Below are positions 1 through 15,627 of a stretch of DNA of 64,000 nt, one piece after another. The notes under the pieces were generated by a model, which was not told the origin of the DNA, did no database searches, and saw only the letters and a list, made by a program, of their open reading frames with translations. The position numbers and the translations under genes were made by a program. Within the stretch, counting starts at the first letter, position 1. Each line of letters starts with the position of its first letter. This DNA comes from Kiritimatiellota bacterium (GTDB taxonomy: Bacteria > Verrucomicrobiota > Kiritimatiellia > JAAZAB01): the NCBI GenBank assembly GCA_026398415.1, contig JAPLSY010000088.1, positions 13,633 to 77,632 of the forward strand. Direction: 5' to 3'.

Positions 1-768
1 TCTTTCTCGTCCTTCATGAGTATTCTCGGCCCGTCCTCGACCACGCCCATCCAGGCGCGGGGGTTGCCGTTCGCGTCCCCCATGAATAGCCCAGGTCCAT
101 CCTTGGCCACGGACATCTGGGCGCGGAGTTTTGCGTTCTCGTCGAACATGGCCAGTCTCGGCCCATCCTTGTACACGGACATCTGGGCGCTGGGTTCGCT
201 GTTCTTATCCGCCATGAGCAGCACCGGTCCATCCTCGTTCACTTTCATCCCGGCGCGGAGATTTTCGTTTTCGTCCATCATAGACAGCATTGGCCCAGTT
301 TCGTCTACGTTCATCCCGGCGCGGAGATTTTCGTTCTCGTCCATCATGAATAGCCCTGGCCCATTCTTGGCCACGGTTATCTTGGCGCGGGGCTTGCCGT
401 TTTCGTCCAACATGAGTAGCCCTGGCCCATCCTCGGTCACGGCTATTATGGCGCTGGGTTGACCGTTCTCGTCAAACATGGTCAGCAACGGCCCATCCTC
501 GATCACGTTCATCCCAACGCGGGGAGTGCCGTTTTTGTCCGTCAAGGTCAGCATTGGCCTATCCTTGTTCACGTTCATCCCGGCGCGGACAGTGCCGTTC
601 TTGTCTATCATAGCCAGCATCGGCCCATCCTCGTCTACGTTCAACTTAATACACTCTTGCCCCTGGTCATCAAGAATGCACAATGCCTTTGTGCAAATTA
701 AGGTCTTCATTTTTTCGATCTCGCGTTCCAGCTTTTCCAAGCGTTCTTCTGTTGTCATGGCGCGTTCC
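1..768 (-). CDS. Tandem-repeat protein, 3'-truncated by window edge. N-terminal coiled-coil segment (MTTEERLEKLEREIEKMK...) followed by at least 11 copies of a 20-aa repeat (consensus about DENGxxRAxMxVxEDGPxLxM). Function unknown.
   Basis: Own translation of the minus strand from ATG at 766-768 (AAGGAA RBS 8 nt upstream) shows no stop codon down to position 1, with a conserved 20-aa periodicity. DNA has a 60-bp period at about 80% identity between units. Not in the ORF track because no stop lies within the window. Plus-strand ORFs 16..462 and 478..795 are S/P/F-rich antisense artefacts of the same repeats. Confidence 0.5.
20..700. repeat. About 11 tandem copies of an imperfect 60-bp unit (coding repeats of the feature above)
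   Basis: Visible periodicity, for example ccggcgcggagattttcgtt(t/c)tcgtccatcat... recurring every 60 bp. Confidence 0.7.
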
Positions 769-852
769 TTTTGTTTTGCCCTTGTTGGGCGGTAGTTTTC
801 GCGGACTTCTTTCCTTCCTTGCGCATGATGACCAGGGCTACTTGTTTCTAGA

Positions 853-2088
853 TCATGCTTCCATTTGCCAGAATTCATAAAGTCGCTTGGTAAACCGACC
901 AGACTTTATTGACTCTAGTTCCTGATTCAGCGTTTTCAGTTCTGCCTTGTCCTGTTTAGGTTGACGCTCGGCTATCCGGATAGCACGGTCGTAAACTTGT
1001 TCGGCTTTGGTGTTCTTGCCTGCGAGAGCCCAGAGCAGGCCAAGATTCTGCAGAAAGGAGATGAGAGCGCGACTATGAGCGCCGTTAGTGTCCTCCTCGA
1101 TTTGAACCGCCTGTTCAAGAGCATGTAAGCCTTCGTCCTTATCACCGGTTCTGGTCAATGTTAGGGCAAAATTATTCAAGACACTGGGGAGATTGCTGCT
1201 TCCCGTTCCATGCTCTTTTTCGAGGATGGACAGAGCCTGGCGGAATAACCGTTTTGCCTTTTGATACTGCTCTAATGTCACATAGACCAGAGCCAAATTG
1301 TTCATTGTATCTACAACCGACGGGTCTTGTGCGCCCGCTTTTACCCGGCGAATGGCCAGAGAGCGTTTATAGAGCGTCACCGCCTTTTTATTTTCCTTTA
1401 GACCGGTATTGACTTTGGCCAGAGAGTCAAGCATATCAGCAATCCGACTGTCCCGGCAACCGAAAGTCTTTTCACCTAAAGCCAGTGCCGATTGATAGGT
1501 TCTGCGGGCCTTCTTGAGGCTGGCCGCATCCTGATATTTGCCATGCTCCTCGTAGGCACAGCCGAGATGCAAGATGTGCATGACGCGGGTTTCCGCGTCG
1601 GATTGTTCGCAGACCGGCGCGGTAGTCGCGGTCTCCAGACAGCTTATGGCCTGACTGTATTCATCTTTGTCCAGGTGATTCATGCCGAGGTGGTCGAGCA
1701 CATCTGCCGTCGTCTCCAACTCATTGAAATGTTCTTCTTTCGACACTTCGCATGGTGAGTCATTCGCCGGTTCCATATCGGGGATCAGCATCTCATGTAA
1801 TTTGATCTGAATTAGTCCGTCGCCGAGATTTAGCGGTTCATATTCGGGAGTCACTTTCCAGCAGGCGCTCCGGCCATCCCGAACCACACCCAGGATGTTC
1901 AACTTCTTGAGCACCCATGGCGTTTGACATTCCGGGCATTGAGTGACTTTCCCGATCCGTTTTATCTGTTTGACAAGTTCTCGGCCGTCTTTAACCTCGT
2001 GTTCATAATTTTCCGGGCATTGCTTGCACCCGAGAGCCACAACGGCATAATTGCCCGGGAAAGTGAATTGTTTCATGATATTCCTCAT
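853..2088 (-). CDS. TPR-repeat protein (TPR_10/12-like) with N-terminal CxxC...CxxC zinc-ribbon-like segment
   Basis: Multiple TPR-like helical repeats (NLALVYVTLEQYQKAKRLFRQAL, LNNFALTL...). Cys pairs near the N-terminus (CKQCP...CPEC). Confidence 0.65.
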   Translation of the reverse strand: MRNIMKQFTFPGNYAVVALGCKQCPENYEHEVKDGRELVKQIKRIGKVTQCPECQTPWVLKKLNILGVVRDGRSACWKVTPEYEPLNLGDGLIQIKLHEMLIPDMEPANDSPCEVSKEEHFNELETTADVLDHLGMNHLDKDEYSQAISCLETATTAPVCEQSDAETRVMHILHLGCAYEEHGKYQDAASLKKARRTYQSALALGEKTFGCRDSRIADMLDSLAKVNTGLKENKKAVTLYKRSLAIRRVKAGAQDPSVVDTMNNLALVYVTLEQYQKAKRLFRQALSILEKEHGTGSSNLPSVLNNFALTLTRTGDKDEGLHALEQAVQIEEDTNGAHSRALISFLQNLGLLWALAGKNTKAEQVYDRAIRIAERQPKQDKAELKTLNQELESIKSGRFTKRLYEFWQMEA

Positions 2089-2109
2089 TATTAAGTCAAC
2101 GGAGCATTG

Positions 2110-2850
2110 TCAGTCCCCCTCAGCATATTTCCACTGGTCGTCCTGCGGTTCGGCTTTCCCCTGAAACGCCAGAGTACCCAGATAATTGGCAGCCTTTTCG
2201 ACCCCATTTTTGGCCGCCTTTCGGAGCCATCTCAGCGCCATCTTGTGATTCCTTGCGCCACCAATCCCCTTCTCATAAAAACAGGCCAATGCATATTGGG
2301 CATACCCATGCCCTTTATCCGCAGCACGTGAGAGCAGCCGCCGCGCCTTCAGCTGATTCCTTTTTATTTTAGGTCTATTGGCATAGCCTAAGCCCAATTC
2401 GCATAGGGCCGCAGGATGTCCTTGTTTGGCTGCCAGTCCATACCACCGAATGGCCTGGGCACGATCTTTTTTGATGCCAAGTCCATCATTGTAAATAATC
2501 CCAACATTGTGCTGCGCCGTACTGAGCCCAAGATCCGCGGCCCTTCTGAAATATCCAAGTGCTTTCGTATAATCGCGTCGCACCCCGTGGCCGCGATAAT
2601 ACATACCGCCCACGTCATTTATGGCTATGACATGCCCTTGGGCGGATGCCTTTTTCAACCATGCTAATGCTTCCTTATTGTCGGGATGATCGTTTTGCTG
2701 ATCTAGCAGCATCACGCCCAGCCGCCACTGAGCTTCGGCGTTGCCTGTTTCAGCCAATTTGCGATAGACCGCCATAGCTGACTCCCAATCTCCCTGCTTT
2801 TCACTTGCGATGCCTTTCTTGAGCTTCTTGGCGTCCATTTTCGATGTCAT
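2110..2850 (-). CDS. Sel1-like repeat (SLR) protein
   Basis: Six or more Sel1 repeats with the canonical pattern AQxxLGxxYxxGxGVxxDxxKAxxWYxKAAxQG. Confidence 0.8.
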   Translation of the reverse strand: MTSKMDAKKLKKGIASEKQGDWESAMAVYRKLAETGNAEAQWRLGVMLLDQQNDHPDNKEALAWLKKASAQGHVIAINDVGGMYYRGHGVRRDYTKALGYFRRAADLGLSTAQHNVGIIYNDGLGIKKDRAQAIRWYGLAAKQGHPAALCELGLGYANRPKIKRNQLKARRLLSRAADKGHGYAQYALACFYEKGIGGARNHKMALRWLRKAAKNGVEKAANYLGTLAFQGKAEPQDDQWKYAEGD

Positions 2851-2951
2851 TGTTGCCCCTCCTGTCCATGGTTTTACCTATCGGTGTTTAGCGCCCAAAT
2901 CCCTGAAAACACACTGTTCCTTTTTTCTGGAGCTAATGTAGCATGGACCAT

Positions 2952-3021
2952 AGGACAAACAATGTCCTATCCAATAAATAATTTTATCACGAATTGTGTT
3001 GATCCCTTGTCATGGAAGGGA
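2952..3021. promoter_or_regulatory. Two palindromes (AGGACAaacaaTGTCCT at 2952-2969; TCCCTTgtcatggAAGGGA at 3003-3021) in the 183-bp leader of the WYL regulator gene. Candidate operator/promoter region.
   Basis: Perfect inverted repeats seen directly upstream of the 3034 start, with a TTGATC-17-TAATAA promoter-like spacing overlapping the second palindrome. Confidence 0.3.
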
Positions 3022-3033
3022 TAATAAGACCTT

Positions 3034-4065
3034 ATGAAACGTTTCGATGCCGAGCAAAAGGCTCCTATGGCCAAGGCAAAATTCAAGCCTCAATTTCAGC
3101 GCTTGGTGTTTATCGATCAGAAAATCCGGGCCGGCCGATACCCGAACTGCACCACGCTTTCGCGGGAATGGGAGGTCAGTTACAAGACCATTCAGCGGGA
3201 TATTGATTACCTGAAAGATGCGCACGATGCGCCCATAGAATACGATAAGGCTCATTGTGGCTTTTATTATAAGGCCCCGACATGGTTCCTTCCCGCCGTC
3301 ATGCTCAGCGAAGGGGACATCTTTGCCCTGCTGATCGGCTCGCAGGCGTTGCAGATGTATCAGGGAACCCCGATGGCCAGGGAATTAAAGGCGATTTACG
3401 CCAAGCTGGCGCAATTGTTGCCTGAACAAATCTCCGTTCCGCCCGAATTGATCTTCAACCGGCTGAGTTTTCTGGGCGCTCCTTGCCGTCCAATTAACGC
3501 GGACATCTGGAAGTCGCTGGTCCGCGGGATACTTCATCAGCGGGCAATGTGGATCGAGTACGCGTCTCCACGTTCCAATAAGCCAAAGGAGCACACGATT
3601 CATCCACTGCACATTGCGAACATCGAAGGCGATTGGTATGTCCTGGCACACGAAACGCGGTGGAAAGACATCGCGCAATATGCCGTATCGAGAATCAGGA
3701 AAGCCGAATTACAGGACACTACGTTTGTACCGCCGAGAGGTTTTGACGCCAAGCGGATTCTGAAAGACCGGTTTGGCAAGTTCATTCATGTGGATGGCGG
3801 CAAGAGAATCACGGTTCGCCTGCGATTCAGTCCTGAAACCGCCAACTACATCTCGGAACGATCCTGGCACCCCCAGCAGAAACTACGCATCCTGAGAACC
3901 GGGGAGGCCGAACTACAGTTTCCCGTGGCGGATTTAGCTGACGTTGTGCCGTGGGTGCTGAGTTTCGGCGCCGAGGTCAAGGTGCTTCAGCCGCGGACAC
4001 TACGCGCGGCGATCTTGGCAAGACTGCAGGAAACGCTTATGATGTATCGCGATGGGGGAAAATAA
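3034..4065 (+). CDS. WYL-domain transcriptional regulator (wHTH + WYL + C-terminal WCX; BrxR/CapW/PafBC-like)
   Basis: N-terminal DeoR-like HTH (TLSREWEVSYKTIQRDIDYLKDAHDAPIEYD). WYL core (HTIHPLHIANIEGDWYVLAHETRWKDIAQYAVSRIRKAELQ). Length about 340 aa is typical. Confidence 0.8.
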   Translation: MKRFDAEQKAPMAKAKFKPQFQRLVFIDQKIRAGRYPNCTTLSREWEVSYKTIQRDIDYLKDAHDAPIEYDKAHCGFYYKAPTWFLPAVMLSEGDIFALLIGSQALQMYQGTPMARELKAIYAKLAQLLPEQISVPPELIFNRLSFLGAPCRPINADIWKSLVRGILHQRAMWIEYASPRSNKPKEHTIHPLHIANIEGDWYVLAHETRWKDIAQYAVSRIRKAELQDTTFVPPRGFDAKRILKDRFGKFIHVDGGKRITVRLRFSPETANYISERSWHPQQKLRILRTGEAELQFPVADLADVVPWVLSFGAEVKVLQPRTLRAAILARLQETLMMYRDGGK

Positions 4066-5173
4066 CGCCATGATCATAACCAAAACGCTGATGAAACAGG
4101 GAAAGACGCCGCCGCCGACAGGCGGCACACTGCTGGCTGATGTGCGGACGATGATTCTCACCGCGCGGGAAGGCGTTGCTCGTGCGGTGGACGCCGGCCT
4201 GACGACGCTCTACTGGCATGTTGGCCGGCGCATACGACACGATATCCTGAAAGAACAGCGCGCCGGGTACGGGGAAGGGATTGTCTCCGCACTGGGGAGA
4301 CAATTGGCCGCGGAGTTTGGTCGAGGGTTCTCGGAGAAATCTCTGCGACACATGATACGGTTTGCGGAGGCGTTCTCAGATTTCAAGATTGTCTCATCAC
4401 TGCTGAGACAATTGTCTTGGAGCCATTTCCTTGCTCTGATCTACCTCGATGATCCGCTCAAGCGCGACTTTTACGCCGAGATGTGCCGGATCGAACGCTG
4501 GAACACGCGGACGTTGGCGAAAAAGATCCAGTCCATGCTTTTCGAGCGTACCGCGCTGTCCCGTAAGCCCGCCAAGCTGGCCGAGATGGAATTGAAGCAA
4601 CTGCGGGAAGAAGACAAGTTGACCCCTGACCTGGTCTTTCGTGACCCGTACCTCCTGGACTTCCTGGGGCTGAAGAATACTTACGCAGAGAAAGATGTCG
4701 AGGCCGCCATTCTCCGGGAAATGGAGTCGTTCATCCTTGAACTCGGCGTAGGCTTTGCCTTCATGGAGCGGCAGAAACGGATCACGGTGGACGGCGACGA
4801 TTACTACCTGGACTTGCTTTTCTTTCACCGGCGACTGAAACGGCTGGTGGCCATCGAACTGAAGCTGGGCGATTTCAAACCGGCCGACAAGGGCCAGATG
4901 GAACTTTATCTGCGTTGGCTCGACAAATATGAGCGCCGGGAAGGTGAAGACAGTCCGCTCGGGTTAATCCTGTGCGCCGGGAAGAAGGAAGAGACCGTGC
5001 GCCTGCTCGACATGGAGAAAAGCGGCATCCGGGTTGCTGCCTACTGGACCGAAATCCTGCCCAAGGCACAATTGGAACGGAAACTCCATGAAGCCGTGCT
5101 TCTCGCGCGCGAACGGTTGACGGCCAAAAAGACTGCGGTACGTAAGCGCAAGCGCCTGGACGGAGGAAAGTGA
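4052..5173 (+). CDS. DUF1016/YhcG-family PD-(D/E)xK nuclease (PDDEXK_1)
   Basis: N-terminal YhcG_N signature (LSWSHFLALIYLDDPLKRDFYAEMCRIERWNTRTL). C-terminal nuclease signature (VAIELKLGDFKPADKGQMELYLRWLD...PLGLILCAGKKEE). Start overlaps the WYL gene stop by 14 nt. Confidence 0.8.
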   Translation: MGENNAMIITKTLMKQGKTPPPTGGTLLADVRTMILTAREGVARAVDAGLTTLYWHVGRRIRHDILKEQRAGYGEGIVSALGRQLAAEFGRGFSEKSLRHMIRFAEAFSDFKIVSSLLRQLSWSHFLALIYLDDPLKRDFYAEMCRIERWNTRTLAKKIQSMLFERTALSRKPAKLAEMELKQLREEDKLTPDLVFRDPYLLDFLGLKNTYAEKDVEAAILREMESFILELGVGFAFMERQKRITVDGDDYYLDLLFFHRRLKRLVAIELKLGDFKPADKGQMELYLRWLDKYERREGEDSPLGLILCAGKKEETVRLLDMEKSGIRVAAYWTEILPKAQLERKLHEAVLLARERLTAKKTAVRKRKRLDGGK

Positions 5174-5210
5174 TTATATCCCAAACCGTCTTTACCCACA
5201 AAGGAGCAAC

Positions 5211-6230
5211 ATGAAAAAAAGAAGGCGTGAAGAAGACATGTATCCGGCAATAAAACGATACTTCATAAAGAAATTGGATTGCGAACATATTTCGGTGGAC
5301 TTGCCCGGTCAAAAGAAAGTACACCTGCCTAGAAATCTCAGCAAAAGAGACCCCGATGTCCTTGGTATCACTACTGATGGTGAGGTTGTCGCGGCAGAAG
5401 GCAAATTATTGTCCCAGAGCGGCCAGCCATTTGAGGTATGTATCGAGCAGTTACTCAGCCTCAAGTCTTTTGCTGATCATCTCTATGCCTTCTTCCCAAA
5501 AGAAGAATGGAATGAATTGTCCGCGGATGATGTGAAGACGAACAGGAAACGTCTAAAGAATAAAGGGATTGGGCTAATCTTGGTCGATCAGAAAAGCAGG
5601 TGTTTTGATATCTTGAATGTTCCGCCGAATCCTGATGTCGAGGAGTCGAAACGAGATGCTGTCAAAAAACAGCTTGGCCTTCAGGCTGATGATCGAATTC
5701 CGGATATCGGTTGCTTATCTACATCGGATGCAACAGTTGCCAATAAACTGCTGTGCTTGGTAGACGAAACTATTACCGAAGCCGTGAGAACTGCTTTACG
5801 AAAAGTATTCAAGCAAGCCAAGAAAAAAGGCAAGAACTGGGATGTCTATCCGATTGCAGGCAGCGAAGGATGTGATGCCCGTGTGTTCCGGGTTTACTTT
5901 GATCACGGGGCGGTTGACGTGGAGATAGACCCATTCGGTGCCTACTTGAGAGATGGCAGGCCATGCATTTGGGTTTCCAAAGCGGTAGAAGATGATTTCT
6001 TTGAGACAAAAGGTAGGCGGTGTGACTCGATTGGAACACATGCATACTTTTTAGATAAGGGCGATGTGGTCTCTCTCTATGATGCAACCACGGATAGGGC
6101 GCGGCGGTGTTCCGAAGCTGGGTTCTGGTCATTCCTGATGCACCAGATTCCGTTTCTTGGCCGTTCGCGATCCGGTCTTGAGGATGAACTTGAAGCGGTA
6201 ATTCGCGCGGCCAAACAATTGAAAGGCTAA
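5211..6230 (+). CDS. Hypothetical protein (339 aa) in a low-GC segment. Possible N-terminal PD-(D/E)xK-like motif (DPDVLGI...EVVAAEGK).
   Basis: Long ORF with Lys-rich N-terminus and strong AT bias relative to surroundings. The motif assignment is tentative. No recognisable family. Confidence 0.45.
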   Translation: MKKRRREEDMYPAIKRYFIKKLDCEHISVDLPGQKKVHLPRNLSKRDPDVLGITTDGEVVAAEGKLLSQSGQPFEVCIEQLLSLKSFADHLYAFFPKEEWNELSADDVKTNRKRLKNKGIGLILVDQKSRCFDILNVPPNPDVEESKRDAVKKQLGLQADDRIPDIGCLSTSDATVANKLLCLVDETITEAVRTALRKVFKQAKKKGKNWDVYPIAGSEGCDARVFRVYFDHGAVDVEIDPFGAYLRDGRPCIWVSKAVEDDFFETKGRRCDSIGTHAYFLDKGDVVSLYDATTDRARRCSEAGFWSFLMHQIPFLGRSRSGLEDELEAVIRAAKQLKG

Positions 6231-6293
6231 AAACTATACAGGGTGCCAATATCTGACCCGCACGGTGACCAATTGCTGGTGTGACGGTAACGC

Positions 6294-7370
6294 CTACTTC
6301 TTCTTCCTCAACGCACGCACTTTTCCCCGAAGCTTCCGCCAAGGAACGGTCTTTCTCGGTCCGGGATGGAGCATGGTGTGGCAGTTCGAACAGACTACGA
6401 GGAGATCGTTTCTCGGGTCTATCTGCCGGCGTCCACTGCGCGCCAACGGTCTAATGTGATGCACCTCCGCGAACTTCACGCCGTAGGTTTTTTCAAAGGT
6501 AAAATCACAGACTCGGCATACATATCCATCCTCCAACGCCGCCCGACGATTTCGAGCATCTCTCTCTACTACACGCTTTATGACCTCATGCCTACGTCCC
6601 TCGATAAACCCCTTTTGCTTTTCATCATCTTTTATTTCTATTGGTGTTTGAAAAGGCACCCGATCCTTTTTTCGGATGCACGCCCCTTGCCGAGTCATAC
6701 GATGAAAAAATGCATCGAACTCATCGAAACTCCGAAAACCATTATCTACGGCAATACTTCTGAGTCGAGGAACATGTCTATGAATGTATACGTCTACACG
6801 CTTGGTCTTGACGAATCCATAGATCACTGCCTCAAAACCGCGAATTGATCCGTCATTCACTATTGGATACCACATGGGCTGAAGAACCCAGACAAACGTG
6901 CTTATAACACCAATCCCCAGACCGCTGACTGGGTGCTTAGCGTAATTCTCCAACGCCCTATCGGCATAGTTTCGATCCTTTGCTTTTGCTACAGTCCGCA
7001 GCATCTGCCAAAGACGTTCCCTGTCCCCTTTTTTTCTCAAACAGTGCTCGATAGATCCAAGAGTGCCGCCCACTATGCCCGACCACTTCTTTCTTGCTCT
7101 GTCAATACTTCTCAAGATTTTCGGCGGAAAACCTCTTTCATACACGGCAAGCTTGGCTTCCGGGCCGCATTTACCTTCATAACGAAGAGCGCGATACAAG
7201 GCATCGAACTGTTGCGAAGTTGGCAGTCTCTTTCTACTGGTTAGATAGCTAAAAAATATGCAGAAGACACGTTGAGCACGGTGGTAGTTCCATTCATCAT
7301 TGTGTTTCCGTTTCCAGTCGCGGCGGAAACGACTAAGTTCAACATGTAAATTTCTCGCTCCCATATTCAT
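6294..7370 (-). CDS. HNH-endonuclease-domain protein (C-terminal HNH/ββα-Me; N-terminal about 250-aa domain of unknown function)
   Basis: C-terminal CRVCDFTFEKTYGVKFAEVHHIRPLARSG...NDLLVVCSNCHTMLH, with two Cys pairs flanking His-His as in HNH. Low-GC, convergent with the 5211..6230 gene. Confidence 0.7.
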   Translation of the reverse strand: MNMGARNLHVELSRFRRDWKRKHNDEWNYHRAQRVFCIFFSYLTSRKRLPTSQQFDALYRALRYEGKCGPEAKLAVYERGFPPKILRSIDRARKKWSGIVGGTLGSIEHCLRKKGDRERLWQMLRTVAKAKDRNYADRALENYAKHPVSGLGIGVISTFVWVLQPMWYPIVNDGSIRGFEAVIYGFVKTKRVDVYIHRHVPRLRSIAVDNGFRSFDEFDAFFHRMTRQGACIRKKDRVPFQTPIEIKDDEKQKGFIEGRRHEVIKRVVERDARNRRAALEDGYVCRVCDFTFEKTYGVKFAEVHHIRPLARSGRRQIDPRNDLLVVCSNCHTMLHPGPRKTVPWRKLRGKVRALRKKK

Positions 7371-7580
7371 CCTCCTGTCTTGGTTTAATGCTCCGGGATT
7401 TTTCCGATGGATCCAACCTTAGGCTGAACTCATCCCGTTTTCGGCCCGGTCGGAGCGAAAGAGTTTTATGCCGCGAGTTTGGCACATTTGGTCGCATAGT
7501 CAAGCGGCGACAGATTATAGAGCAGTGATTCTCTGTATTGCCACGTCCAACCACCAGCGGATGTCGTGGCCGACTGCATT

Positions 7581-9050
7581 TCAATGCTTAACGGTGCCTT
7601 GAAGATTGCGCAGAATTCCAATCATCCCGCCCGTATCCTGACCACAATATCGCAAGAGTTGATTCCGTATCTTGCGCCGCTCGGCTGTGCTGACATCGCC
7701 AAATGTAACCCGCAGGAATTCCTGGCTGGCTGTTGATCCGTCTGCAATGGGCAAGTTGTCATAACTCCGCTTTGTCAAGGCCGGCATCACCCGCTTCAAT
7801 GAATTGCTGCCATGCTGGCGAGGATGATAATAGGCGACCTTCCTGAACGGGATAATGAGGTCGTTGATTCGCTTCAGGACTTCACAAACCCACAGTCTGT
7901 GCGCCGGAAATGCTTGAGCCATCTGTTTGAGCATGTTTTTCTCAAAAGCCATGTAGAATACCAGGATCGTCCCGGAACGACCAATGGTATGCTTCAGACT
8001 TTGGAGAAGTTTCGGGCGAGGATCATTCCGGCCTTCGGCCAGAAATGAGTGATGAACTGGCTTCGCCCTTGGCGCATCGAGTACGTGCAGTGAATATTGA
8101 AAAGGTATCTGCTGGTAGGGCTTGGTTCCGTCAAAGATCGGAATGGGTGTGCTGAATGTCTCGAAATCAAGGAGCCTTACGGGATATTCGATCTCCGATA
8201 GGAAGCCTGCGATAGCGGGAGCATCGATATGAGGTCTGTGTGTCCTGAGACTTTTGACTTGGACAGCCTGGTACTTAGTGAATTTAAAGTCCTGCGGAAT
8301 GTCTTTGATTTTGATGATACCGTTCTCAAATAGGTCAAACTTCTTGTTCCCGATCTGGTATAATTCAAAAATATTGTCTTTGGGCAGAAAAGACCAACAG
8401 GCATCCATAAGAGGGCATCCAACCGGTGTGCTGCACTGCGGGCCAATAGGAATCTTTGGACACTTGGCCGCCGCAATTATTTTCCGGATGCGAACAACAT
8501 CTGTGGGAATCGTTCGGAGGTTCGCTTTAACCTCATTGCTGACATGGTGAATGCAGAACAGCTTCTTGATTCTGATCGGACCTCGTTTTACGTATTCCTG
8601 GTTAAGAGTCGCGATGTGGGTATGGTGTATCGGTAGTCCCGACTTATCGCAGACATACTTCTGGAAAGCCACATCCTGGATAAAGTGATCTTCGATATCC
8701 GTTGTGGATTTAACCTCGACAATATCCCATCCGCCTCTGACCGGAACAAGGATGTCAATCTGGGCGTAGAAGTCAGTAAAGGCAATGGCTGCTTCGTAGA
8801 TCGGCTTGCGGCTCAAGAGCGCCTTCCTGGTGGCTGTGATTCGGTCTGAAAGACGGAGAGCTGTATCTATGGCGATACCACCCGGAAAGAGGGACTGAGC
8901 CTGGATGCCAACCTCTTGCCCGCGTTCGATGGCGGATGGAACATCATCACCTTCTGTGACCAAGTCCTTAGGTCTGTGAACCCGAGTCCACAACAACTTT
9001 GAGCACTGGAGCCCCGCCATGTAGTTTGTCTTGGTAATCAGCATCCACAA
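7581..9050 (-). CDS. DUF2779-like predicted nuclease: N-terminal Cas4/RecB-like PD-(D/E)xK domain with 4-Cys cluster plus C-terminal DEDD (RNase H-like) exonuclease-like domain
   Basis: N-terminus MAGLQCSKLLW. Motif QIDILVP...WDIVEVKSTT (D...EVK). Cys cluster CPKIPIGPQCSTPVGCPLMDAC. The RLLDFETFSTPIP motif resembles exonuclease motif I. Confidence 0.55.
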   Translation of the reverse strand: MWMLITKTNYMAGLQCSKLLWTRVHRPKDLVTEGDDVPSAIERGQEVGIQAQSLFPGGIAIDTALRLSDRITATRKALLSRKPIYEAAIAFTDFYAQIDILVPVRGGWDIVEVKSTTDIEDHFIQDVAFQKYVCDKSGLPIHHTHIATLNQEYVKRGPIRIKKLFCIHHVSNEVKANLRTIPTDVVRIRKIIAAAKCPKIPIGPQCSTPVGCPLMDACWSFLPKDNIFELYQIGNKKFDLFENGIIKIKDIPQDFKFTKYQAVQVKSLRTHRPHIDAPAIAGFLSEIEYPVRLLDFETFSTPIPIFDGTKPYQQIPFQYSLHVLDAPRAKPVHHSFLAEGRNDPRPKLLQSLKHTIGRSGTILVFYMAFEKNMLKQMAQAFPAHRLWVCEVLKRINDLIIPFRKVAYYHPRQHGSNSLKRVMPALTKRSYDNLPIADGSTASQEFLRVTFGDVSTAERRKIRNQLLRYCGQDTGGMIGILRNLQGTVKH

Positions 9051-9136
9051 ACTCCAACGTCAGGCCAATGGCTAATGGCGCTTGGATATGGTTAAACCTT
9101 GTTCTCTCGTCGTTCTATCGCTTGTCAAACCAAAGG

Positions 9137-10174
9137 TTATGCTTTGTCGAGCGTATCTCCAGATAGGAATACAAGGTCATAGCCGCAATGGTCGACGATG
9201 AATTTGACGAGCGCATCGGATGGGCGCGATTGGATGGCCAACATGCCGTGAGCATTTTGGAGGCGCTGTCTGTAAAGGAACGCGTAGTAGTTGAGTTGGG
9301 CGGCGCCGAGGCGGACTTGACATTCGATGTTGTCGGGCCGGCAGGACTTCACCTCGACTATGATGCGCTTGCGTTTTTTTCGTGCGCTCAGATCCAGATG
9401 CTTGTCCCATTTTATGATATAACCCTGACCTTTCAGATATGCTGCGACCTTGCGCTTGAGAGCCTCGTGATCCCGATAGGACGTTTGAAGCTTCGCATTG
9501 TCCTTCGATAGCCTGATGGTAAACGGACCCGTGTATTCTGGTAACTCCTTGGCAACAAACCGTCGCAGAATCGAGCCGCTGACGGATGAGGGACTTTCCG
9601 TCCCTGTTGTGAGTCGGGAGGGGCGGATGCCTGGGAAGTAGGTATCTGCAATATGATAAAGCCTTGGCGTGGTGTCCCCCGTAAAGCTGCCTCCGCGCCG
9701 ACGAATGGCAAGCATATCAGAGAGGATGTTTCTGGCCTGGACATCCTTCAGATAGGCTATGTATCTGACGGTCTTTGTTCCTGGGGGGAGGTGACGGCTG
9801 GGAAGAAAGGGAAGATAGTTCGGAAGTTTTATGCAGTCTTTCCACCAAGCCTTCAGATTGGTCCAATGTCCGCTCCGCATCTGGGGCGTGAAAACTGTCG
9901 CTCTGGCATAGAAGCCGGTGATGTATCGCATGCCGTCGGCATGATTCTTGGATACGAAGAAGACGATTCCACCGTCCGCGAAGAAGCGCACATCGTTGCC
10001 CCGGTTCTCGAAGAATCCGTACTTCCATTTGTCGCGCGGCGGCCTGAAGTTCCATGATTCGCCGCCGTGGTGTTTACTCGGGTCGGTCGCGACCCACTTG
10101 AACCCTGAGCGGTCTGGGCTCACATCAGTCCATCCTTTGCTGTTCCAAGTCGTGTTGGCCAAGATGAATCGCAT
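9137..10174 (-). CDS. Putative modification-dependent (type IV-like) restriction endonuclease: N-terminal domain of unknown function (possible PUA/EVE-like reader) plus C-terminal PD-(D/E)xK (IIVEVKSC)
   Basis: C-terminal DKHLDL...RIIVEVKSCRPDNIEC...QLNYYAFL fits Mrr-like catalytic core. Only 8 bp downstream of the type IIG gene, so likely co-transcribed. The N-terminal assignment is an inference. Confidence 0.4.
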   Translation of the reverse strand: MRFILANTTWNSKGWTDVSPDRSGFKWVATDPSKHHGGESWNFRPPRDKWKYGFFENRGNDVRFFADGGIVFFVSKNHADGMRYITGFYARATVFTPQMRSGHWTNLKAWWKDCIKLPNYLPFLPSRHLPPGTKTVRYIAYLKDVQARNILSDMLAIRRRGGSFTGDTTPRLYHIADTYFPGIRPSRLTTGTESPSSVSGSILRRFVAKELPEYTGPFTIRLSKDNAKLQTSYRDHEALKRKVAAYLKGQGYIIKWDKHLDLSARKKRKRIIVEVKSCRPDNIECQVRLGAAQLNYYAFLYRQRLQNAHGMLAIQSRPSDALVKFIVDHCGYDLVFLSGDTLDKA

Positions 10175-10182
10175 ATATTCTC

Positions 10183-13083
10183 CTAACCTTCCACGATTTT
10201 GATTTCCTCTTCCGTCAGGCCGTACAGTTCGTACACCAGACGGTCAATCTGCTGGTCGGTCGCCTGCACGGCGTTCTGCAACGTCTCGCGCTCCCGCTCA
10301 CCCTTCGCCGCCCGCAACTTCGGCACCAGCGTCAGCATTTTGTCCACAAGCTCAACAAGCCGGTCGTGGCGGGCACGGTCTGCGGGGTTCTTGAAATCTA
10401 GTCTTGGGAGAGGGATCTGGCGGAAATCCGACGGATTGATGTTTACATTTGGGAAGTGCGCGCGATACCAGTAGTTGATGAGTTTTGAATTGAACACGCC
10501 TAAAACAAATCTGAGTGAATAGTCGCTACCTGCTTTATGAATGATGTTTGCCAAGTTATGCGCGTTGTAATGCAATTCCGTATCTAAAGTCGCGACCAAC
10601 CTGCGAGACAACGATTTATTCCGCATCGCGTGTAAAAGAATCTTTTCTCCGTTGAAGTATCGCTCATCGCGCGGGCACCAGAGCCACTCGCCATATGACA
10701 CAAACTCGCCGCCCCAAAGCACTTCGTAGCGTGCGATATTCTTTCCGCGCAGAAGCCTCTTCCAGCTTTTCCGGGGTTGAAATCCCGTATATTTGGCCTT
10801 CTCTGCATCGGATCCTGTCTTGTAAAGAATAATTCCTTGAGATGAGTCCGTAACGTCGCCAAGCCGAATTTCCCCGGATTCCACTGTCTTAAACAACTTG
10901 GCCTGTCTTGGGTTCGTGTGGACGTTGATCCTGCACGATTCATCTTGCTGAACTACGCTTTGTGCAATCTGGAAAGACTCGTCCCAATCCATCCTCGCCA
11001 CGCGCGTCTTGTCACTCTTGGGATCCAGCTTGTGAATTAAAAGCTTGTGAGTTGCAGTGCCATTGGTGTCCCGAATGTAAAAGAGCAGAACATTGTCAAC
11101 AACCACCCCGGCGAAAACGCCTTGCGGGAGGTCAACCAACTCTGTGATCTTCCCTTGGGTGACGAGGCGCCGGCGCAAAAGCTCATATGAATGTCCCATG
11201 AGAAAGGTGTTGGGCAGAATGTTGCCAAACCGCCCGCTGGTTCTAAGCAGCGAGGTGCCGCGCAGAACGAAAATCTGGTACAGGTCGTATCGTTTCCCAA
11301 GCCTGCCAGCTTCCCCATATGCGGAGGTGTAATAATCGCGATGCTCGGCGGGAATATTCTCGATTTGAACGTATGGCGGATTCCCGATCACGATATCGAA
11401 TCCCCCAACTTTCATGGCGTCGGGGAACTGCACGGGCCAGTCGAAGGCGTGGACACGCTCAAGGTCTGCGGAAACCTTTGAGAAGTCGGAGGCGATAAGT
11501 GAGTTTCCGCATTTGATGTTGTGGTATAGATTTGGCAATGCGCGTTCGTGTTCGTGGAAGAGGGTCATCTGCTGGGAAAGGGTGGTGTCATTTTCGCCTT
11601 CGAGGGCTTTCAGTAGCAACGAGAGCTTGGTGGTTTCGACGGCCTGCGGGTCGATGTCGACGCCGTAGATGTGGGTGGTGAGGATGCGTTTGCGTTCGCC
11701 GATGGAGAGACATGTTTCCCCTTTGGCGTTCTGATAGACGGCTTTGGCGTGTTTTTTAGAGAGGTTTGCCTGATGCCATTTCAGGCAATGGTCCAGCAGA
11801 AACTGATAGGCGCTGAGGAGGAAGGATCCGCTGCCGCAGGCCGGGTCGAGGATGCGAAAGGGGGGCGTGGTTTTGCCGCCAGCGAGATCGGCAGGGCTTT
11901 TGCCTTCAATCTGTTTGCCGATGGTGCTGTGGACGATGTAGTTCACGATATAGGCGGGGGTGTAGTATACGCCGCCGGCCTTGCGCACTTCGGGCTTTTC
12001 CTCGACTTTGGCCTGGTGTCCGGCGGTCAGGCGAATGACTTTGCCGAGGAAGCGTTCGTACACCGTACCGAGGATTTCCACGGGCATGACGCCGAAGTGG
12101 TATGGGCAACCGTGTTCGAAGTAGAGGCTTTGGAGAATGGGCTTGAGGGCATTGTCGTCCACGGCCAGACTCGGCGTGAGGGTGTCCGGCGCATCGGAGA
12201 CGCCGATTTCTTTCTGGAAGTGGAACAGGCCGGAGTTGTATTTCTGATCGGCCTTGCGGCACACGCCGCTCATAAAACGGTTGTAGATGTCCGGCTGTTC
12301 ACAGAGCTTGAGCAGTTGCCCGTAAGATTCCAGTCCGCGATCCTCGGCCATGCGCAGGAAAATGAGCCGGTCAATGATCCGTTGAACGGCGGCTGTGAGG
12401 TCTTCTTCCGACGACAAATCGCTGTTTCGCAGGGCGAGGTTTCGTGCCAGCACATCGCGCCAGCCTTCAATATCCTTCAAAAACTCGCTATCAACCTCGG
12501 AGGTGCCTCGCTTACGCTTGGAGGCAGCATACTTGTCGAACGTCCCAGACCAGATGGCCTCGCGCGAGAAAACGTCCCAAATCTCCCGCCAACGGTCAGG
12601 ATACTCGGTGAACCCGAAATACTGGATACGGGCATGGCTGGCCTTATCGCCGGGTCGCGGGCGAGCGGCGCAATCGTAAACGCCCAGTTCATCGAAGTCG
12701 GTCAGGATGGACAGAGCTAACTTGGCGCTGAAACCGTAGCGGCGAAGTTGAAAGGCTGGCGCGGGATCGGCGCTGATATTGACGCCGCACTTTTTGGCTT
12801 CGACGTAGAACTTCGGCAATGTGCCGATGCGGAAGGTGTAGTCGGGTGCCTTCAGTTGGCCTTCCACATCCAAACTGTCTTCGGTAATGACTTCGCGATA
12901 TTGGGGTGCGGTCATGGAGTGGTTGCGCACGTCCCAACCAAGGGCCTCGAAAAAAGGGTCTATGAGCGATTGGCGGACGTGAGCTTCCTTGACTCCAGGG
13001 GCGAGGAAGGACTGCCGGTTAGAGGTGAAGTACTGACATAGCTTTGCAACTTCATCTTTGCCTTGGTCGAATGTTTTACTCAT
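10183..13083 (-). CDS. Type IIG/IIL restriction-modification enzyme (MmeI/Eco57I-like): N-terminal PD-(D/E)xK endonuclease, central N6-adenine methyltransferase, C-terminal target-recognition domain
   Basis: N-terminal DYTFRIGTLPKFYVEAKK (D...EAK). SAM motif I ILDPACGSGSFLL. Motif IV IGNPPYVQ. 966 aa in a single polypeptide. Confidence 0.85.
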   Translation of the reverse strand: MSKTFDQGKDEVAKLCQYFTSNRQSFLAPGVKEAHVRQSLIDPFFEALGWDVRNHSMTAPQYREVITEDSLDVEGQLKAPDYTFRIGTLPKFYVEAKKCGVNISADPAPAFQLRRYGFSAKLALSILTDFDELGVYDCAARPRPGDKASHARIQYFGFTEYPDRWREIWDVFSREAIWSGTFDKYAASKRKRGTSEVDSEFLKDIEGWRDVLARNLALRNSDLSSEEDLTAAVQRIIDRLIFLRMAEDRGLESYGQLLKLCEQPDIYNRFMSGVCRKADQKYNSGLFHFQKEIGVSDAPDTLTPSLAVDDNALKPILQSLYFEHGCPYHFGVMPVEILGTVYERFLGKVIRLTAGHQAKVEEKPEVRKAGGVYYTPAYIVNYIVHSTIGKQIEGKSPADLAGGKTTPPFRILDPACGSGSFLLSAYQFLLDHCLKWHQANLSKKHAKAVYQNAKGETCLSIGERKRILTTHIYGVDIDPQAVETTKLSLLLKALEGENDTTLSQQMTLFHEHERALPNLYHNIKCGNSLIASDFSKVSADLERVHAFDWPVQFPDAMKVGGFDIVIGNPPYVQIENIPAEHRDYYTSAYGEAGRLGKRYDLYQIFVLRGTSLLRTSGRFGNILPNTFLMGHSYELLRRRLVTQGKITELVDLPQGVFAGVVVDNVLLFYIRDTNGTATHKLLIHKLDPKSDKTRVARMDWDESFQIAQSVVQQDESCRINVHTNPRQAKLFKTVESGEIRLGDVTDSSQGIILYKTGSDAEKAKYTGFQPRKSWKRLLRGKNIARYEVLWGGEFVSYGEWLWCPRDERYFNGEKILLHAMRNKSLSRRLVATLDTELHYNAHNLANIIHKAGSDYSLRFVLGVFNSKLINYWYRAHFPNVNINPSDFRQIPLPRLDFKNPADRARHDRLVELVDKMLTLVPKLRAAKGERERETLQNAVQATDQQIDRLVYELYGLTEEEIKIVEG

Positions 13084-13325
13084 AAGTGTTTAATCCTTAT
13101 CCCCGGTTACCGGCAACTTTCAGACGCCGAACGAATAGCGTTTTATCCAGTGTGCCGCGAGCATACAACGGCGAACGAGGTGGGACAAGCGCAAATCAAG
13201 CGGCATAATGGACAGCGGGGAGCATCCACCCTTAGCCAGATTGCCGACCTGCATTGATGGCGCTGGAATAGGGCCGGACGCCCCCAGGACTTCCCAAGCG
13301 GATCAGGCCGGGGCGATTATAAGAA

Positions 13326-13865
13326 TCAATCCGCCTTAAAACCAATCCGTTTTCTTGTCGGTTCCGGCGGGCGCATGAGTTCTCTGATTGCGTCGAAAAC
13401 GGCTTTGAATTGCACGTCGTATTTCTTCTCAAGTTCGGCCAGCTTGTGCGCCAGTTCGACGTTTGAGGTCAACCATTGGCGGATACGAACAAAGGCGCGC
13501 ATGATTTCAATGTTCACACTTACCGCGCGCGGGCTGTGCAACACGCTTGACAGCATGGCAACGCCCTGCTCGGTGAAGGCATAGGCCGGTTTCCGTCTGC
13601 CGCCGTGTCCATAACTTGAAGTGCCAAATTGGAACATCAAGTTTGTAAGTTCCTGCGGTTCAAGTTGAAGCATGAAGTCATCAGGGAAGCGTTCGCGGTT
13701 GCGTTTCACGGCCCGATTGAGTGCCTTGGTTTCCACGCCATACAGCGCGGCCAGGTCGCTATCCAACATAATCTTCTGGCCGCGGAGAAGCATGATTTTC
13801 TTTTCAATACTTGCCGCAGGTATCAGGTCGGTCTTGTTAGGCTTAGGCATGGGCAGGGACTTCAA
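13326..13865 (-). CDS. ORF6N-domain (KilA-N-like) DNA-binding protein
   Basis: [45 protein letters not shown] matches the ORF6N N-terminal signature. Confidence 0.7.
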
Positions 13866-14046
13866 AGGTTGTCAGGATGGGGGTTTCCGGTTCGGGCAAA
13901 GGAAATTCTTCAAGATAAAGCTCCGTGGCTTCCCGCAGGTTGGCCAGGGCTTCGTCAAAAGTCTCGCCTTGCGTCGTCGTGCCTGTCTCCGGGTTTGTGG
14001 CGATGAACCAGTCTTTTTCCTTATGAATGACTGCTGATAGTCTCAC
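13843..14046 (-). CDS. HicB-like antitoxin (UPF0150, N-terminal-domain-only form)
   Basis: 67 aa: [45 protein letters not shown] matches the HicB_lk_antitox pattern. 3' end overlaps the ORF6N gene start by 23 nt. No HicA-like ORF nearby. Confidence 0.55.
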
Positions 14047-14070
14047 AACATTTTCCTTGTGTAAATTGAA

Positions 14071-15375
14071 CTATATCATGTCATGAAGTAATGAAGCAAG
14101 CAGTTTGTCACGCTGGGCACGCCAATTTTTGGCGGTCATGGATTTCAGGATGGCACAAATTGCAGCCTTGTCGATCTTGCCGGGATTGTCGGTGAGTGGA
14201 GGTAGCGCCGGTGCATTGCCGATTAAGACGGGCATGGAGCCTACGGCTTCCTTCATTGCCTTTTCCCCGACATGCGTATAAGTGTCGTGCATGGCCAGCG
14301 TTGAATGGCCCACAATCGCCATTGTCACCGAAAGCGGTGCGCCTGCTTCCCGGAGCAGGGAAACGGCGGAATGTCGTAATGAATGAAATCCGGCGGAGAT
14401 AACCTTGCGAACACCGTGGCCGTCTCGTTTTGTCACAATCCCATTTTTCTCGAAATGCTGTTGAACAATCTTGGATACCGCATACGGCCCTGTTTCCGTA
14501 TAAAGTTTTGCCATTTTCGGGAGAATATAGCCTTGCCGATTTTCCGGCGGTATTTCAGCAAGGATATTCGCAAGGGTAGGGTGCAAAGGAACAGTCAATT
14601 CCTTGCCGTTTCTCCTGGCCGTTTTGCGCGGCATATACCGGATCAAGCCCCGCTTCAGGTCTATGTTGCCCCATTCCATTGTCGCGGCGTCCGCCAGGCG
14701 TGCCCCCAGGTAGAGCCCCAGGGCCAGCATGAGGCGGAGTTCACCTTCCGCGCTTTGACATATTCGCTTTAATTCCTCGACGGTTAATTCCCGGCGGCTT
14801 TGCGGCGCCAGTCCTTTTTTCCGTTGGATCTCCTCCCACGGATTATTCTCTATTCTGGCTTTATCCTTCAGGACACGGAAAACCAGTTCACAGACGCGGA
14901 CATGCTTATTGAACGTGTTGGCCGTGACGCCCCGGCCCGCCAGGTGTGCGGCATATTCCCCGGCAATTTCCATATTCACACCCCGCAGGCTTTTAATGTC
15001 AGGATGTTTTTCAACAAGCCAGCGTTCAAAACAGCCCCATTGCAGGGCGTAGGTTGCCAGCGTAGCCTTGCCGCTGTCAGGCCGGTTAGAAGCCTTTTCG
15101 TAATTATCCCAGGTGGCAACGATGCTTAATGGCGGGTTTCTCTTTCCATTAAGGATGGCCAATTCATCTTTTGCCCCTTCAATCCGGGCTTTCACGTTCT
15201 GAAGGGTTTTGATTTCATCTTCGACCAGAAACGGCTCCATGATTTCAGCCAAGCGTTTTTCCGCTTCCCGGCGGACGGTCCGGCTGGTAGTCTTCATAAA
15301 TTTCTTGCCTGCCACCGTCCAACAGGCATAATAGGTTTTGTTTCGGAGAATGAGGTAGCCTTTACGTGTTTTCAT
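14071..15375 (-). CDS. Tyrosine site-specific integrase/recombinase
   Basis: C-terminal catalytic region HSLRHSAVSLLREAGAPLSVTMAIVGHSTLAMHDTYTHV (R...HxxR...Y). N-terminal SAM-like arm-binding region. Confidence 0.9.
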   Translation of the reverse strand: MKTRKGYLILRNKTYYACWTVAGKKFMKTTSRTVRREAEKRLAEIMEPFLVEDEIKTLQNVKARIEGAKDELAILNGKRNPPLSIVATWDNYEKASNRPDSGKATLATYALQWGCFERWLVEKHPDIKSLRGVNMEIAGEYAAHLAGRGVTANTFNKHVRVCELVFRVLKDKARIENNPWEEIQRKKGLAPQSRRELTVEELKRICQSAEGELRLMLALGLYLGARLADAATMEWGNIDLKRGLIRYMPRKTARRNGKELTVPLHPTLANILAEIPPENRQGYILPKMAKLYTETGPYAVSKIVQQHFEKNGIVTKRDGHGVRKVISAGFHSLRHSAVSLLREAGAPLSVTMAIVGHSTLAMHDTYTHVGEKAMKEAVGSMPVLIGNAPALPPLTDNPGKIDKAAICAILKSMTAKNWRAQRDKLLASLLHDMI

Positions 15376-15495
15376 GGGTTGCGCCTTCCCTCTGTTGGTT
15401 TCTTTTGATAGCGCAATTTAAGCAAAACCGAGGCGAGGTGTCAACTACAAAAAGGTAGCAAGGCGAGTATGGATACGGAGAAATAAGAGCATATA

Positions 15496-15552
15496 CTGGA
15501 CTCAAAATCCAGCGGTGGCAACACCATGAGGGTTCAACTCCCTCCTCCGGCA
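15496..15552 (+). tRNA. tRNA-Leu(CAA) 3' fragment (anticodon arm through acceptor 3' strand). Probable att-site remnant of the island, not a complete tRNA gene.
   Basis: Anticodon stem CTGGA/TCCAG with loop CTCAAAA (anticodon CAA). Long variable arm CGGTGGCAACACCAT. T-arm GAGGG-TTCAACT-CCCTC. Acceptor 3' strand CTCCGGC plus A. Upstream sequence lacks a D-arm and only 5 of 7 acceptor base pairs can form. Confidence 0.5.
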
Positions 15553-15627
15553 CTCAGCTTTCGTATGGCCTGAACCAAACCCTGCTGTCCGTTGCCGGTC
15601 AGGGTCATACGGGCTATGGAGGTGCTT

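Follow-up and report, generated by a model that had tools for sequence, protein, structure and literature searches.

What do two neighbouring genes of unusual base composition do inside a bacterial defence island, and do they work together? Positions 5211 to 7370 of the 64-kb stretch of Kiritimatiellota DNA analysed here (the window) hold two intact, convergent open reading frames (ORFs) that lie 63 base pairs (bp) apart. One, orfA, encodes a protein of 339 amino acids (aa), and the other, the HNH gene, a protein of 358 aa with a nuclease domain at its C-terminus. A sequence-only reading of the region had proposed a horizontally acquired nuclease system, either a type II/IV restriction enzyme or a toxin-immunity-like pair. 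What stands of this is the presence of nuclease genes of foreign composition in a defence island; a joint system or pair does not emerge. With modest confidence, the best explanation is that the two genes are independent single-gene nucleases carried as cargo of a horizontally acquired, WYL-headed defence island, with the HNH enzyme resembling McrA as a Type IV enzyme. The newest element is the N-terminal domain of the HNH protein, which is common to HNH and McrB effectors and extends from bacterial metagenome-assembled genomes (MAGs) to haloarchaeal plasmids. Loci of relatives are labelled L001-L054 and proteins P0001 onwards.

The nuclease end of the HNH protein is the more readily recognized. 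An AGGAGG sequence abuts the first ATG of the gene and sits 6 nucleotides (nt) before the second (M-N-M). Because it is correctly spaced only from the latter, the true start is probably M3, which would shorten the gene to 6294..7364 and the protein to 356 aa. An NCBI record from a Kiritimatiellota MAG (P0001) is 356 aa long and 100% identical to the window protein. The clear HNH signature claimed by the sequence-only reading (CxxC...HH...CxxCH) is borne out by Pfam HNH (PF01844), which matches aa 285-336 at E 6.3e-8 and 33.1 bits (cutoff 21.4), and its parts can be located as CRVC at 285, HH at 304-305 and CSNCH at 327-331. Among 11 members of the family, the zinc-site cysteines C285, C288, C327 and C330 are invariant, and H304-H305, N329 and H335 of the beta-beta-alpha-metal motif are conserved. 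The best PDB match of this region is E. coli McrA (6ghc, E 0.006-0.018), and the alignment is confined to the HNH region both for the single query (265-337 against residues 196-268 of 6ghc) and for the profile (260-340 against 192-271). A linker at about aa 232-262 is non-conserved in the family alignment. Pfam found no AAA domain in the HNH protein and no methyltransferase domain in either protein. A genome scan with the full HNH alignment returned mostly unrelated HNH-only matches.

The first 232 residues, here called the N-domain, had been described as a domain that could not be placed. Curated libraries agree: neither the single sequence nor a profile of aa 1-232 has a match in Pfam, NCBIfam, PADLOC, PHROG or the PDB, and none of the known modified-base readers EVE, SRA, ADAM/DUF3578 and YTH matches it. 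The earlier verdict that neither protein can be classified from sequence thus describes the curated libraries correctly and fails for exhaustive and profile searches, which place the N-domain with McrB. A phmmer search of 1.84 billion cluster representatives with residues 1-262 as the query returned 21 proteins in all. About 12 of these are 344-357 aa long and have the plan of N-domain plus HNH, two are short and carry the N-domain only, and seven are 640-1100 aa in length. In six of the seven long proteins an N-domain at the start leads into an AAA_5 ATPase, and in three of these six an EVE domain separates the two. The remaining one, P0036 (643 aa), is without a Pfam match. The profile of the HNH-family N-domain matches the long proteins over positions 5-224 with E 1e-10 to 1e-15 at the scale of 1.8 billion proteins. 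Their AAA_5 ATPase has its best matches in the solved structures of McrB (E 1e-11) and carries the McrB signature MNTxDKTS...YAFMRRF, which contains NxxD, a motif named as a feature of McrB (PMC11090510).

A member of this group is encoded on plasmid pHV4 of Haloferax volcanii. HVO_RS02210, a 1098-aa 'AAA family ATPase', matches the N-domain at E 5.5e-15 and consists of an N-domain at aa 8-225, an EVE domain and an McrB-type GTPase. The overlapping gene that follows it encodes a 454-aa 'hypothetical protein' in which a PD...EIK motif was read by eye. Another N-domain protein of the McrB family is found on a Halorarius plasmid, and the N-domain HNH enzymes come from Kiritimatiellota, Planctomycetota and Ignavibacteriales MAGs. 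The conserved columns of the domain are K73, G98xxGG102, A136-D137, G150, S157, P165xxYPIVN172, Y195 and D219. A likeness of GxGxxxxS...PxxYPIxN to helix-hairpin-helix or OGG-like glycosylase folds is no more than a lead, as no search supported it. A homing-endonuclease reading of the gene was set aside, since PHROG matches only the HNH motif, nothing around the gene points to an intron or intein, and McrB proteins share the N-domain.

Because the N-domain both heads McrB motors and is fused to an HNH nuclease, it is best read as a target-recognition module, and such a module would make the window protein a McrA-like single-chain Type IV enzyme. ScoMcrA and TagI are single-chain HNH Type IV restriction endonucleases. 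E. coli McrA, like the window protein, combines an N-terminal non-catalytic part, whose counterpart in the window protein would serve recognition, with a C-terminal HNH domain that has a CxxC...CxxC zinc site. As for McrA-type enzymes, the HNH gene of the window stands in a defence island and has no cognate methyltransferase. The 5mC-binding N-terminal domain of McrA and that of the window protein are unrelated in sequence, only residues 192-271 of 6ghc being alignable, so the HNH protein falls outside the McrA family. McrBC systems combine a McrB GTPase, whose N-terminal specificity domain is modular, with a McrC nuclease. The homology between the N-domain of the window and the N-terminal domain of some McrB-family GTPases extends over the entire domain, whereas the window protein has neither an AAA+ GTPase nor an McrC partner, and its fused nuclease is HNH instead of PD-(D/E)xK; as it has no GTPase domain, it is not an McrB. 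Of the two restriction types suggested by the sequence-only reading, Type IV is the better fit by virtue of the N-domain common to McrB, and Type II does not fit, there being no paired methyltransferase.

As a candidate McrA-like Type IV (modification-dependent) restriction endonuclease, the HNH protein would use the N-domain to bind a nucleic-acid target, probably DNA that bears a modification foreign to the host. A flexible linker at the non-conserved stretch would then deliver the HNH domain to the target, and the zinc-stabilised HNH domain, whose residues are in place, would cut nearby. From its context, the enzyme would need no methyltransferase partner. By analogy with McrB we infer that the N-domain is a specificity module; that the HNH enzyme depends on modification, acts on DNA and serves in defence is inferred as well. 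A further and distinctly more tentative proposal is that the N-domain (GxxGG, AD and GxGxxxxSxFLxxxxPxxYPIVN) may be an undescribed nucleic-acid specificity module of Type IV systems, exchanged between HNH enzymes and the McrB of haloarchaeal plasmids. It would read a DNA modification or feature beyond those read by EVE, SRA, ADAM, YTH and wH domains, and its repeated placement beside orfA may reflect a true partnership of two nucleases.

Turning to orfA, the gene has an AAGGAG ribosome-binding site 6 nt upstream of its ATG, and its product is, as had been remarked, rich in lysine (9.1%). It has no sequence match in Pfam, NCBIfam, PADLOC, PHROG or the PDB, and Pfam at E<=10 gives nothing except an irrelevant match at 0.22. 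The stretch DPDVLGI...AEGK, which spans aa 47-65, had been called a weak PD-(D/E)xK-like motif. This understates it: the motif is invariant in 12 homologues and backed by a fold model. In the alignment of these homologues R41-N42, R46-D47-P48-D49, E63-G-K65, Q72-P-F-E75 and Q80 do not vary. AlphaFold models orfA with a predicted local distance difference test score (pLDDT) of 83.6 and an alpha-beta-beta-beta-alpha-beta core. In the model P48-D49 lies just before strand 50-54 and E63-G-K65 at the end of strand 59-64, such that D49 opens the second strand of the core and E63 and K65 close the third. Structure prediction, which had been proposed for both proteins, thus yielded a PD-(D/E)xK fold for orfA and only a low-confidence model (pLDDT 44) for the HNH protein. 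Foldseek matches orfA to 3dnx and NucS/EndoMS in the PDB and to 'MmcB-like DNA repair' proteins among the viral models of BFVD; 3dnx has been handled as a PD-(D/E)XK structure (PMC3045609). Because the triad is invariant and the model places it at the core site, the PD-ExK assignment is firm, and by motif and predicted fold orfA is a stand-alone two-domain PD-(D/E)xK nuclease. The C-terminal domain has its own conserved positions (F242-G243, D248-G249, C252, W254, G275-T276, D291, H311 and R318-S319). The likeness to MmcB-like proteins (3dnx, SPO1766) and to NucS/EndoMS is structural only, with no Pfam sequence match; orfA differs from MmcB-like proteins in having an extra conserved C-domain of 170 aa and in its mobile or defence context rather than repair loci. 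Mechanistically, the D49/E63/K65 site would hydrolyse nucleic acid, as motif and modelled fold suggest, and the C-domain might, more speculatively, provide recognition of a substrate or partner or else oligomerisation. The gene as a whole behaves as an autonomous cassette and probably encodes a single-gene defence or exclusion nuclease, in the window possibly co-transcribed with the WYL and YhcG genes.

The orfA family is rare: 5.8 billion proteins yield about 20 clusters of it, whose members, fragments aside, are 323-345 aa long (homologues P0009-P0020 and P0041-48). It has no relatives in a scan of viral contigs, nor has the HNH family, and orfA has no match in a plasmid tblastn search. Its surroundings are diverse. 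In L002-4, orfA belongs to a plasmid-like or integrative-and-conjugative-element-like unit; in L005 it adjoins an SLFN_AlbA_2 gene inside an integrase island; in L009/L044 and L045 it adjoins PIN genes; in L050/51 it is near a RelB-like gene and flanked by housekeeping genes; and in L052/53 it adjoins genes for DUF499 and a DEAD helicase. At L007 (1273-2284) the homologue, among metabolic genes, is frameshifted into ORFs of 199 and 130 aa, and this copy is apparently decaying.

Whether orfA and the HNH gene belong together can be judged from how often their homologues meet, a check that the sequence-only reading had itself suggested. Among the loci examined, only the window and the related L008 have a member of each family side by side. 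The HNH family is found without orfA within 8 kb at L010/L012 and L048 and without orfA downstream at L011 and L049, and orfA without the HNH family in about nine independent loci (L002-5, L009, L045, L050-53). Since each family mostly occurs without the other, the two genes are not an obligate pair. The WYL regulator is a more consistent companion of the HNH family than orfA is, as it adjoins the HNH gene in L001 and L010 and lies 2.2 kb away in the window. At L001, a WYL gene (67% identical to that of the window) is followed by a 76-aa gene and the HNH gene, after which the contig ends; at L010/L012, from a Planctomycetota MAG, WYL and HNH genes follow each other on the same strand with an 18-bp gap. 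Elsewhere the neighbours differ. The HNH start at L048 overlaps the stop of a GmrSD gene, and a DUF1848 gene comes next. At L011, from an Ignavibacteriales MAG, a DUF1524-like fragment (recognized by eye) precedes the HNH gene, and the 260 bp beyond it hold no trace of orfA. At L049 the HNH gene is followed by another gene. No methyltransferase was called beside the HNH-family gene at L001, L010/12, L011, L048 or L049, and none is conserved beside either family among the loci examined. As a separate observation on L048, the DUF1848 gene is followed by one for a 2108-aa DEAD-box helicase, and the whole (5392-16497) may be a larger composite defence locus.

Nucleotide comparisons delimit the units that move. 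The window is 85% identical to L008 over 4550-6230, a stretch that begins within YhcG and closes with the orfA stop codon, and 83% identical to L006 over orfA alone (5200-6229). Homology to L006, L008 and L043 stops at 6229/6230, and that to L006 restarts only inside DUF2779 (7619-8768). Because homology ends at the orfA stop and resumes inside DUF2779, the segment 6231-7580, with the HNH gene and its 5' region, is a swapped cassette, and orfA itself is a gene-sized module. No inverted or direct repeats that could explain an inversion were found flanking 6231-7580. In the 63-bp gap, neither a terminator nor a structured RNA stands out from chance (fold z-score of +0.43), and a terminator scan gave a site at 6278-6294 as one of 7 found against 7.8 expected. 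The region 7371..7580 is presumed to hold the promoter of the HNH gene. An 81-aa ORF across it (7339..7584) was discarded by eye as spurious, having a basic frame, a TTG start and overlaps with both neighbours; no resemblance to the 76-aa gene between WYL and HNH at L001 was seen.

The sister loci offer observations of their own. At L006 and L043, orfA is followed by an unrelated 343-aa gene and then by DUF2779. This gene (1640-2671 of L006, 1264-1965 of L043) fills the slot of the HNH gene of the window; it matches the 'homing endonuclease associated repeat' weakly, and its C-terminus resembles, by eye, a Vsr/DUF559-like PD-(D/E)xK domain (YRADFRV...IEYFG). Different nuclease cargo thus appears to occupy the same position in these loci. 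In L006, moreover, the orfA homologue is preceded by 540 bp of non-coding DNA in which a repeat unit of about 150 bp occurs twice, at 86-343 (a 58-nt core 90% identical, plus 30-nt sub-repeats). WYL homologues 35-67% identical to that of the window recur by varying nuclease cargo in L001, L006 and L010, in the manner of a regulator-headed hotspot.

Several findings weigh against two independent nucleases with a McrA-like Type IV enzyme among them. The AlphaFold2 model of the HNH protein, built from an alignment of eight sequences, has the low confidence given above; it suggests an all-alpha N-domain, and as that model is poor, it is position and analogy that speak for a specificity domain. The PADLOC matches to mREase_IV and ZorE are weak and confined to the HNH region. 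On pHV4, the 454-aa partner has no Pfam or PDB match as McrC. Some McrB relatives carry the N-domain and EVE together, from which it follows that the module might do something other than read modified bases. For orfA, the only positive support for a defence role is context, and at L045 and L050 its homologues sit between housekeeping genes. Lastly, in L008 orfA is followed, after 35 bp and in the same orientation, by a gene for an N-domain protein that is truncated by the end of the contig; its product is 38% identical to that of the window and 40% to P0028/P0025. That two families so rare adjoin a second time is not easily put down to chance and suggests some linkage. As the window and L008 share ancestry, the arrangement may also reflect a hotspot that draws on a small stock of cargo genes, or one divergent family member having taken the place of another at the same site.

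The hint from L008 leads to a rather unlikely alternative in which orfA and the N-domain HNH protein are linked parts of a multi-nuclease module, maybe the whole WYL-YhcG-orfA-HNH set, where one protein senses or nicks and the other completes cleavage. The adjacency involves different HNH sub-lineages in the two loci and families so rare that its repetition by chance is improbable; both genes also share the same unusually low GC content at third codon positions (GC3), and WYL homologues accompany both families. However, the window and L008 are not independent (YhcG is 96% identical in amino acids, besides the nucleotide identity over 4550-6230), the relative orientation of the genes differs between them, the unrelated 343-aa gene takes the same slot at L006/L043, and each family occurs without the other at the many loci listed above. 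Also unlikely is that the HNH protein is a WYL-repressed effector of abortive infection. As such it would cut DNA non-specifically, detect a phage protein or stress signal, in place of modified DNA, through its N-domain, and be expressed or activated only on infection. WYL regulators of the BrxR/CapW type control defence operons, and a WYL-WCX gene lies directly upstream on the same strand in L010 and L001, and 2.2 kb off in the window. Against this, the HNH gene of the window converges on the WYL operon and is preceded by an upstream region of its own (210 bp); WYL gives way at L048 and L011 to neighbours of Type IV kind (GmrSD, DUF1524-like); and the N-domain is also found at the head of McrB GTPases, where the N-terminal module is as a rule a DNA-binding specificity domain.

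For orfA, it is quite improbable that the gene encodes a chromosomal DNA-repair nuclease of MmcB type next to which the HNH gene stands incidentally. Such a role would accord with the nearest structures, MmcB-like 3dnx, the 'MmcB-like DNA repair protein' models of BFVD and the mismatch nuclease NucS/EndoMS, and with the homologues amid housekeeping genes at L045 and L050. It is at odds with the lack of any Pfam match even at E<=10, the sporadic and very rare distribution, a GC3 that is the lowest in the window, homology of gene-sized, cassette-like extent, the mobile or defence contexts (relaxase/primase/resolvase, integrase, PIN, RelB-like, DUF499 with helicase, SLFN_AlbA_2), the frameshifted pseudogene at L007 and the extra 170-aa C-domain, for which 3dnx (146 aa) and the phage MmcB-like proteins (about 140-175 aa) are too short. 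Far less probable still is the toxin-immunity (toxin-antitoxin) pair of the sequence-only reading, or two halves of a system like Type II restriction-modification (R-M). The tight convergent layout and foreign composition would suit it, and an HNH nuclease could be toxic. The immunity role fails because orfA is itself an intact nuclease: a 339-aa, enzyme-like protein with an invariant PD...ExK triad that is not inhibitor-like and usually stands alone, with co-occurrence unconserved both ways. A Type II system would call for a paired methyltransferase. Such a domain is absent from both proteins, and no methyltransferase gene is conserved next to members of either family; the one carried by the Type IIG enzyme, 3 kb away, is part of a self-contained R-M fusion. 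Two independent single-gene nucleases, the HNH enzyme among them as a McrA-like Type IV candidate, remain the explanation preferred here.

Table 1. Coordinates of the two nuclease genes, their domains and edges, the surrounding island genes and the McrBC-like pair of H. volcanii.
Feature	Position	Strand	Remarks
orfA	5211..6230	+	339-aa ORF
orfA N-terminal domain, aa 1-135	5211..5615	+	PD-(D/E)xK core predicted: P48-D49, E63, K65, Q72-PFE75, Q80
orfA C-terminal domain, aa 170-339	5718..6227	+	long helix and alpha/beta sheet (model)
Intergenic spacer, convergent, 63 bp	6231..6293	.	left edge of variable cassette
HNH gene	6294..7370	-	358-aa ORF; Pfam HNH
HNH nuclease domain, aa 257-340	6351..6602	-	C285xxC288, H304-H305, C327xxC330-H331, N329, H335
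HNH protein N-terminal domain, aa 1-232	6675..7370	-	module of about 230 aa common to McrB-family GTPases
5' region of HNH gene, 210 bp	7371..7580	-	right edge of variable cassette
McrBC-like pair, H. volcanii pHV4	L054 5710-10360 = NC_013966.1 66855-71505		
WYL-WCX regulator	3034..4065	+	Pfam WYL, WCX
YhcG/DUF1016 PD-(D/E)xK gene	4052..5173	+	Pfam YhcG_C, DUF1016_N; PADLOC candidate PDC-S02
DUF2779/Cas4-like gene	7581..9050	-	Pfam/PADLOC scans
345-aa gene, unplaced	9137..10174	-	ORF
Type IIG R-M (restriction-methylase fusion)	10183..13083	-	Pfam/PADLOC scans
ORF6N gene	13326..13865	-	PADLOC PDC-S05
Tyrosine integrase	14071..15375	-	end of island

The setting of the two genes (Table 1) is as the sequence-only reading had described it, amid restriction genes: a Type IIG R-M enzyme, YhcG/DUF1016, the Cas4-like DUF2779 and WYL. 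The region of about 15 kb is a horizontally acquired anti-phage defence island that ends at the integrase, with its left boundary before the start of the window. No tRNA genes were found in the 64-kb window and no attachment (att) repeats, and no Rfam families in 1-16 kb. On the plus strand, the WYL-WCX and YhcG/DUF1016 genes overlap by 14 nt, and 37 bp separate the YhcG stop from the orfA start; from this spacing WYL, YhcG and orfA form one probable operon. The layout resembles other islands headed by WYL regulators of BrxR/CapW type, in that WYL-WCX proteins with the range of identity given above accompany the HNH family (L001, L010) or the orfA/DUF2779 set (L006) and the cargo varies; it differs in that the putative WYL operon of the window does not include the HNH gene, which runs on the other strand.

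Base composition had been put at 40-48% GC for the gene pair against 60% for the rest. Computed over windows of 2160 bp, 5211-7370 is indeed the lowest in the 64 kb and also the minimum inside the island of 1-15.4 kb (island mean 52.1%), yet the contrast is smaller than claimed, at 47.7% against a mean of 57.0% (sd 3.6), and partly island-wide. Within the stretch, 400-bp windows range from 44 to 53%. As the island itself (1-15400) has 52% GC against 58.5% for the remainder of the 64-kb window, part of the low-GC contrast belongs to the island as a whole. GC3 is 47% for orfA and 48% for the HNH gene, compared with 64-70% for the WYL, YhcG and Type IIG genes. These values support the view that orfA and the HNH gene are compositionally foreign.

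Two further features of the window deserve mention. For the 345-aa ORF on the minus strand (9137-10174), Pfam, NCBIfam, PADLOC and PHROG give no match. In its C-terminus, a D...EVK...Q pattern (IIVEVKS) resembles yet another PD-(D/E)xK nuclease. The ORF may add one more gene of restriction type to the island or else act together with the Type IIG enzyme. At 28-643, a 66-bp tandem repeat of 9.3 copies, which are about 71% identical and show additional periods of 132 and 264 bp at a higher order, reaches the start of the window and would encode repeats of 22 aa. It is probably a repeat-protein gene cut by the window edge.

Modification-dependent restriction enzymes serve as phage-defence factors and as tools for epigenetic mapping, and their usefulness hinges on the specificity of the reader domain. 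The findings extend the catalogue of such enzymes and overturn no current concept. The locus is a well-resolved case of a WYL-headed defence island in which cassettes are swapped precisely at gene boundaries, and the orfA family adds a rare and cleanly delimited two-domain PD-(D/E)xK nuclease that is mobile as a single-gene cassette. Newly delimited as well is a putative reader-type module fused to two Type IV effectors, an HNH nuclease and an McrB motor. Since a copy of the N-domain is carried on pHV4 of H. volcanii, a tractable model archaeon, its specificity is directly testable.

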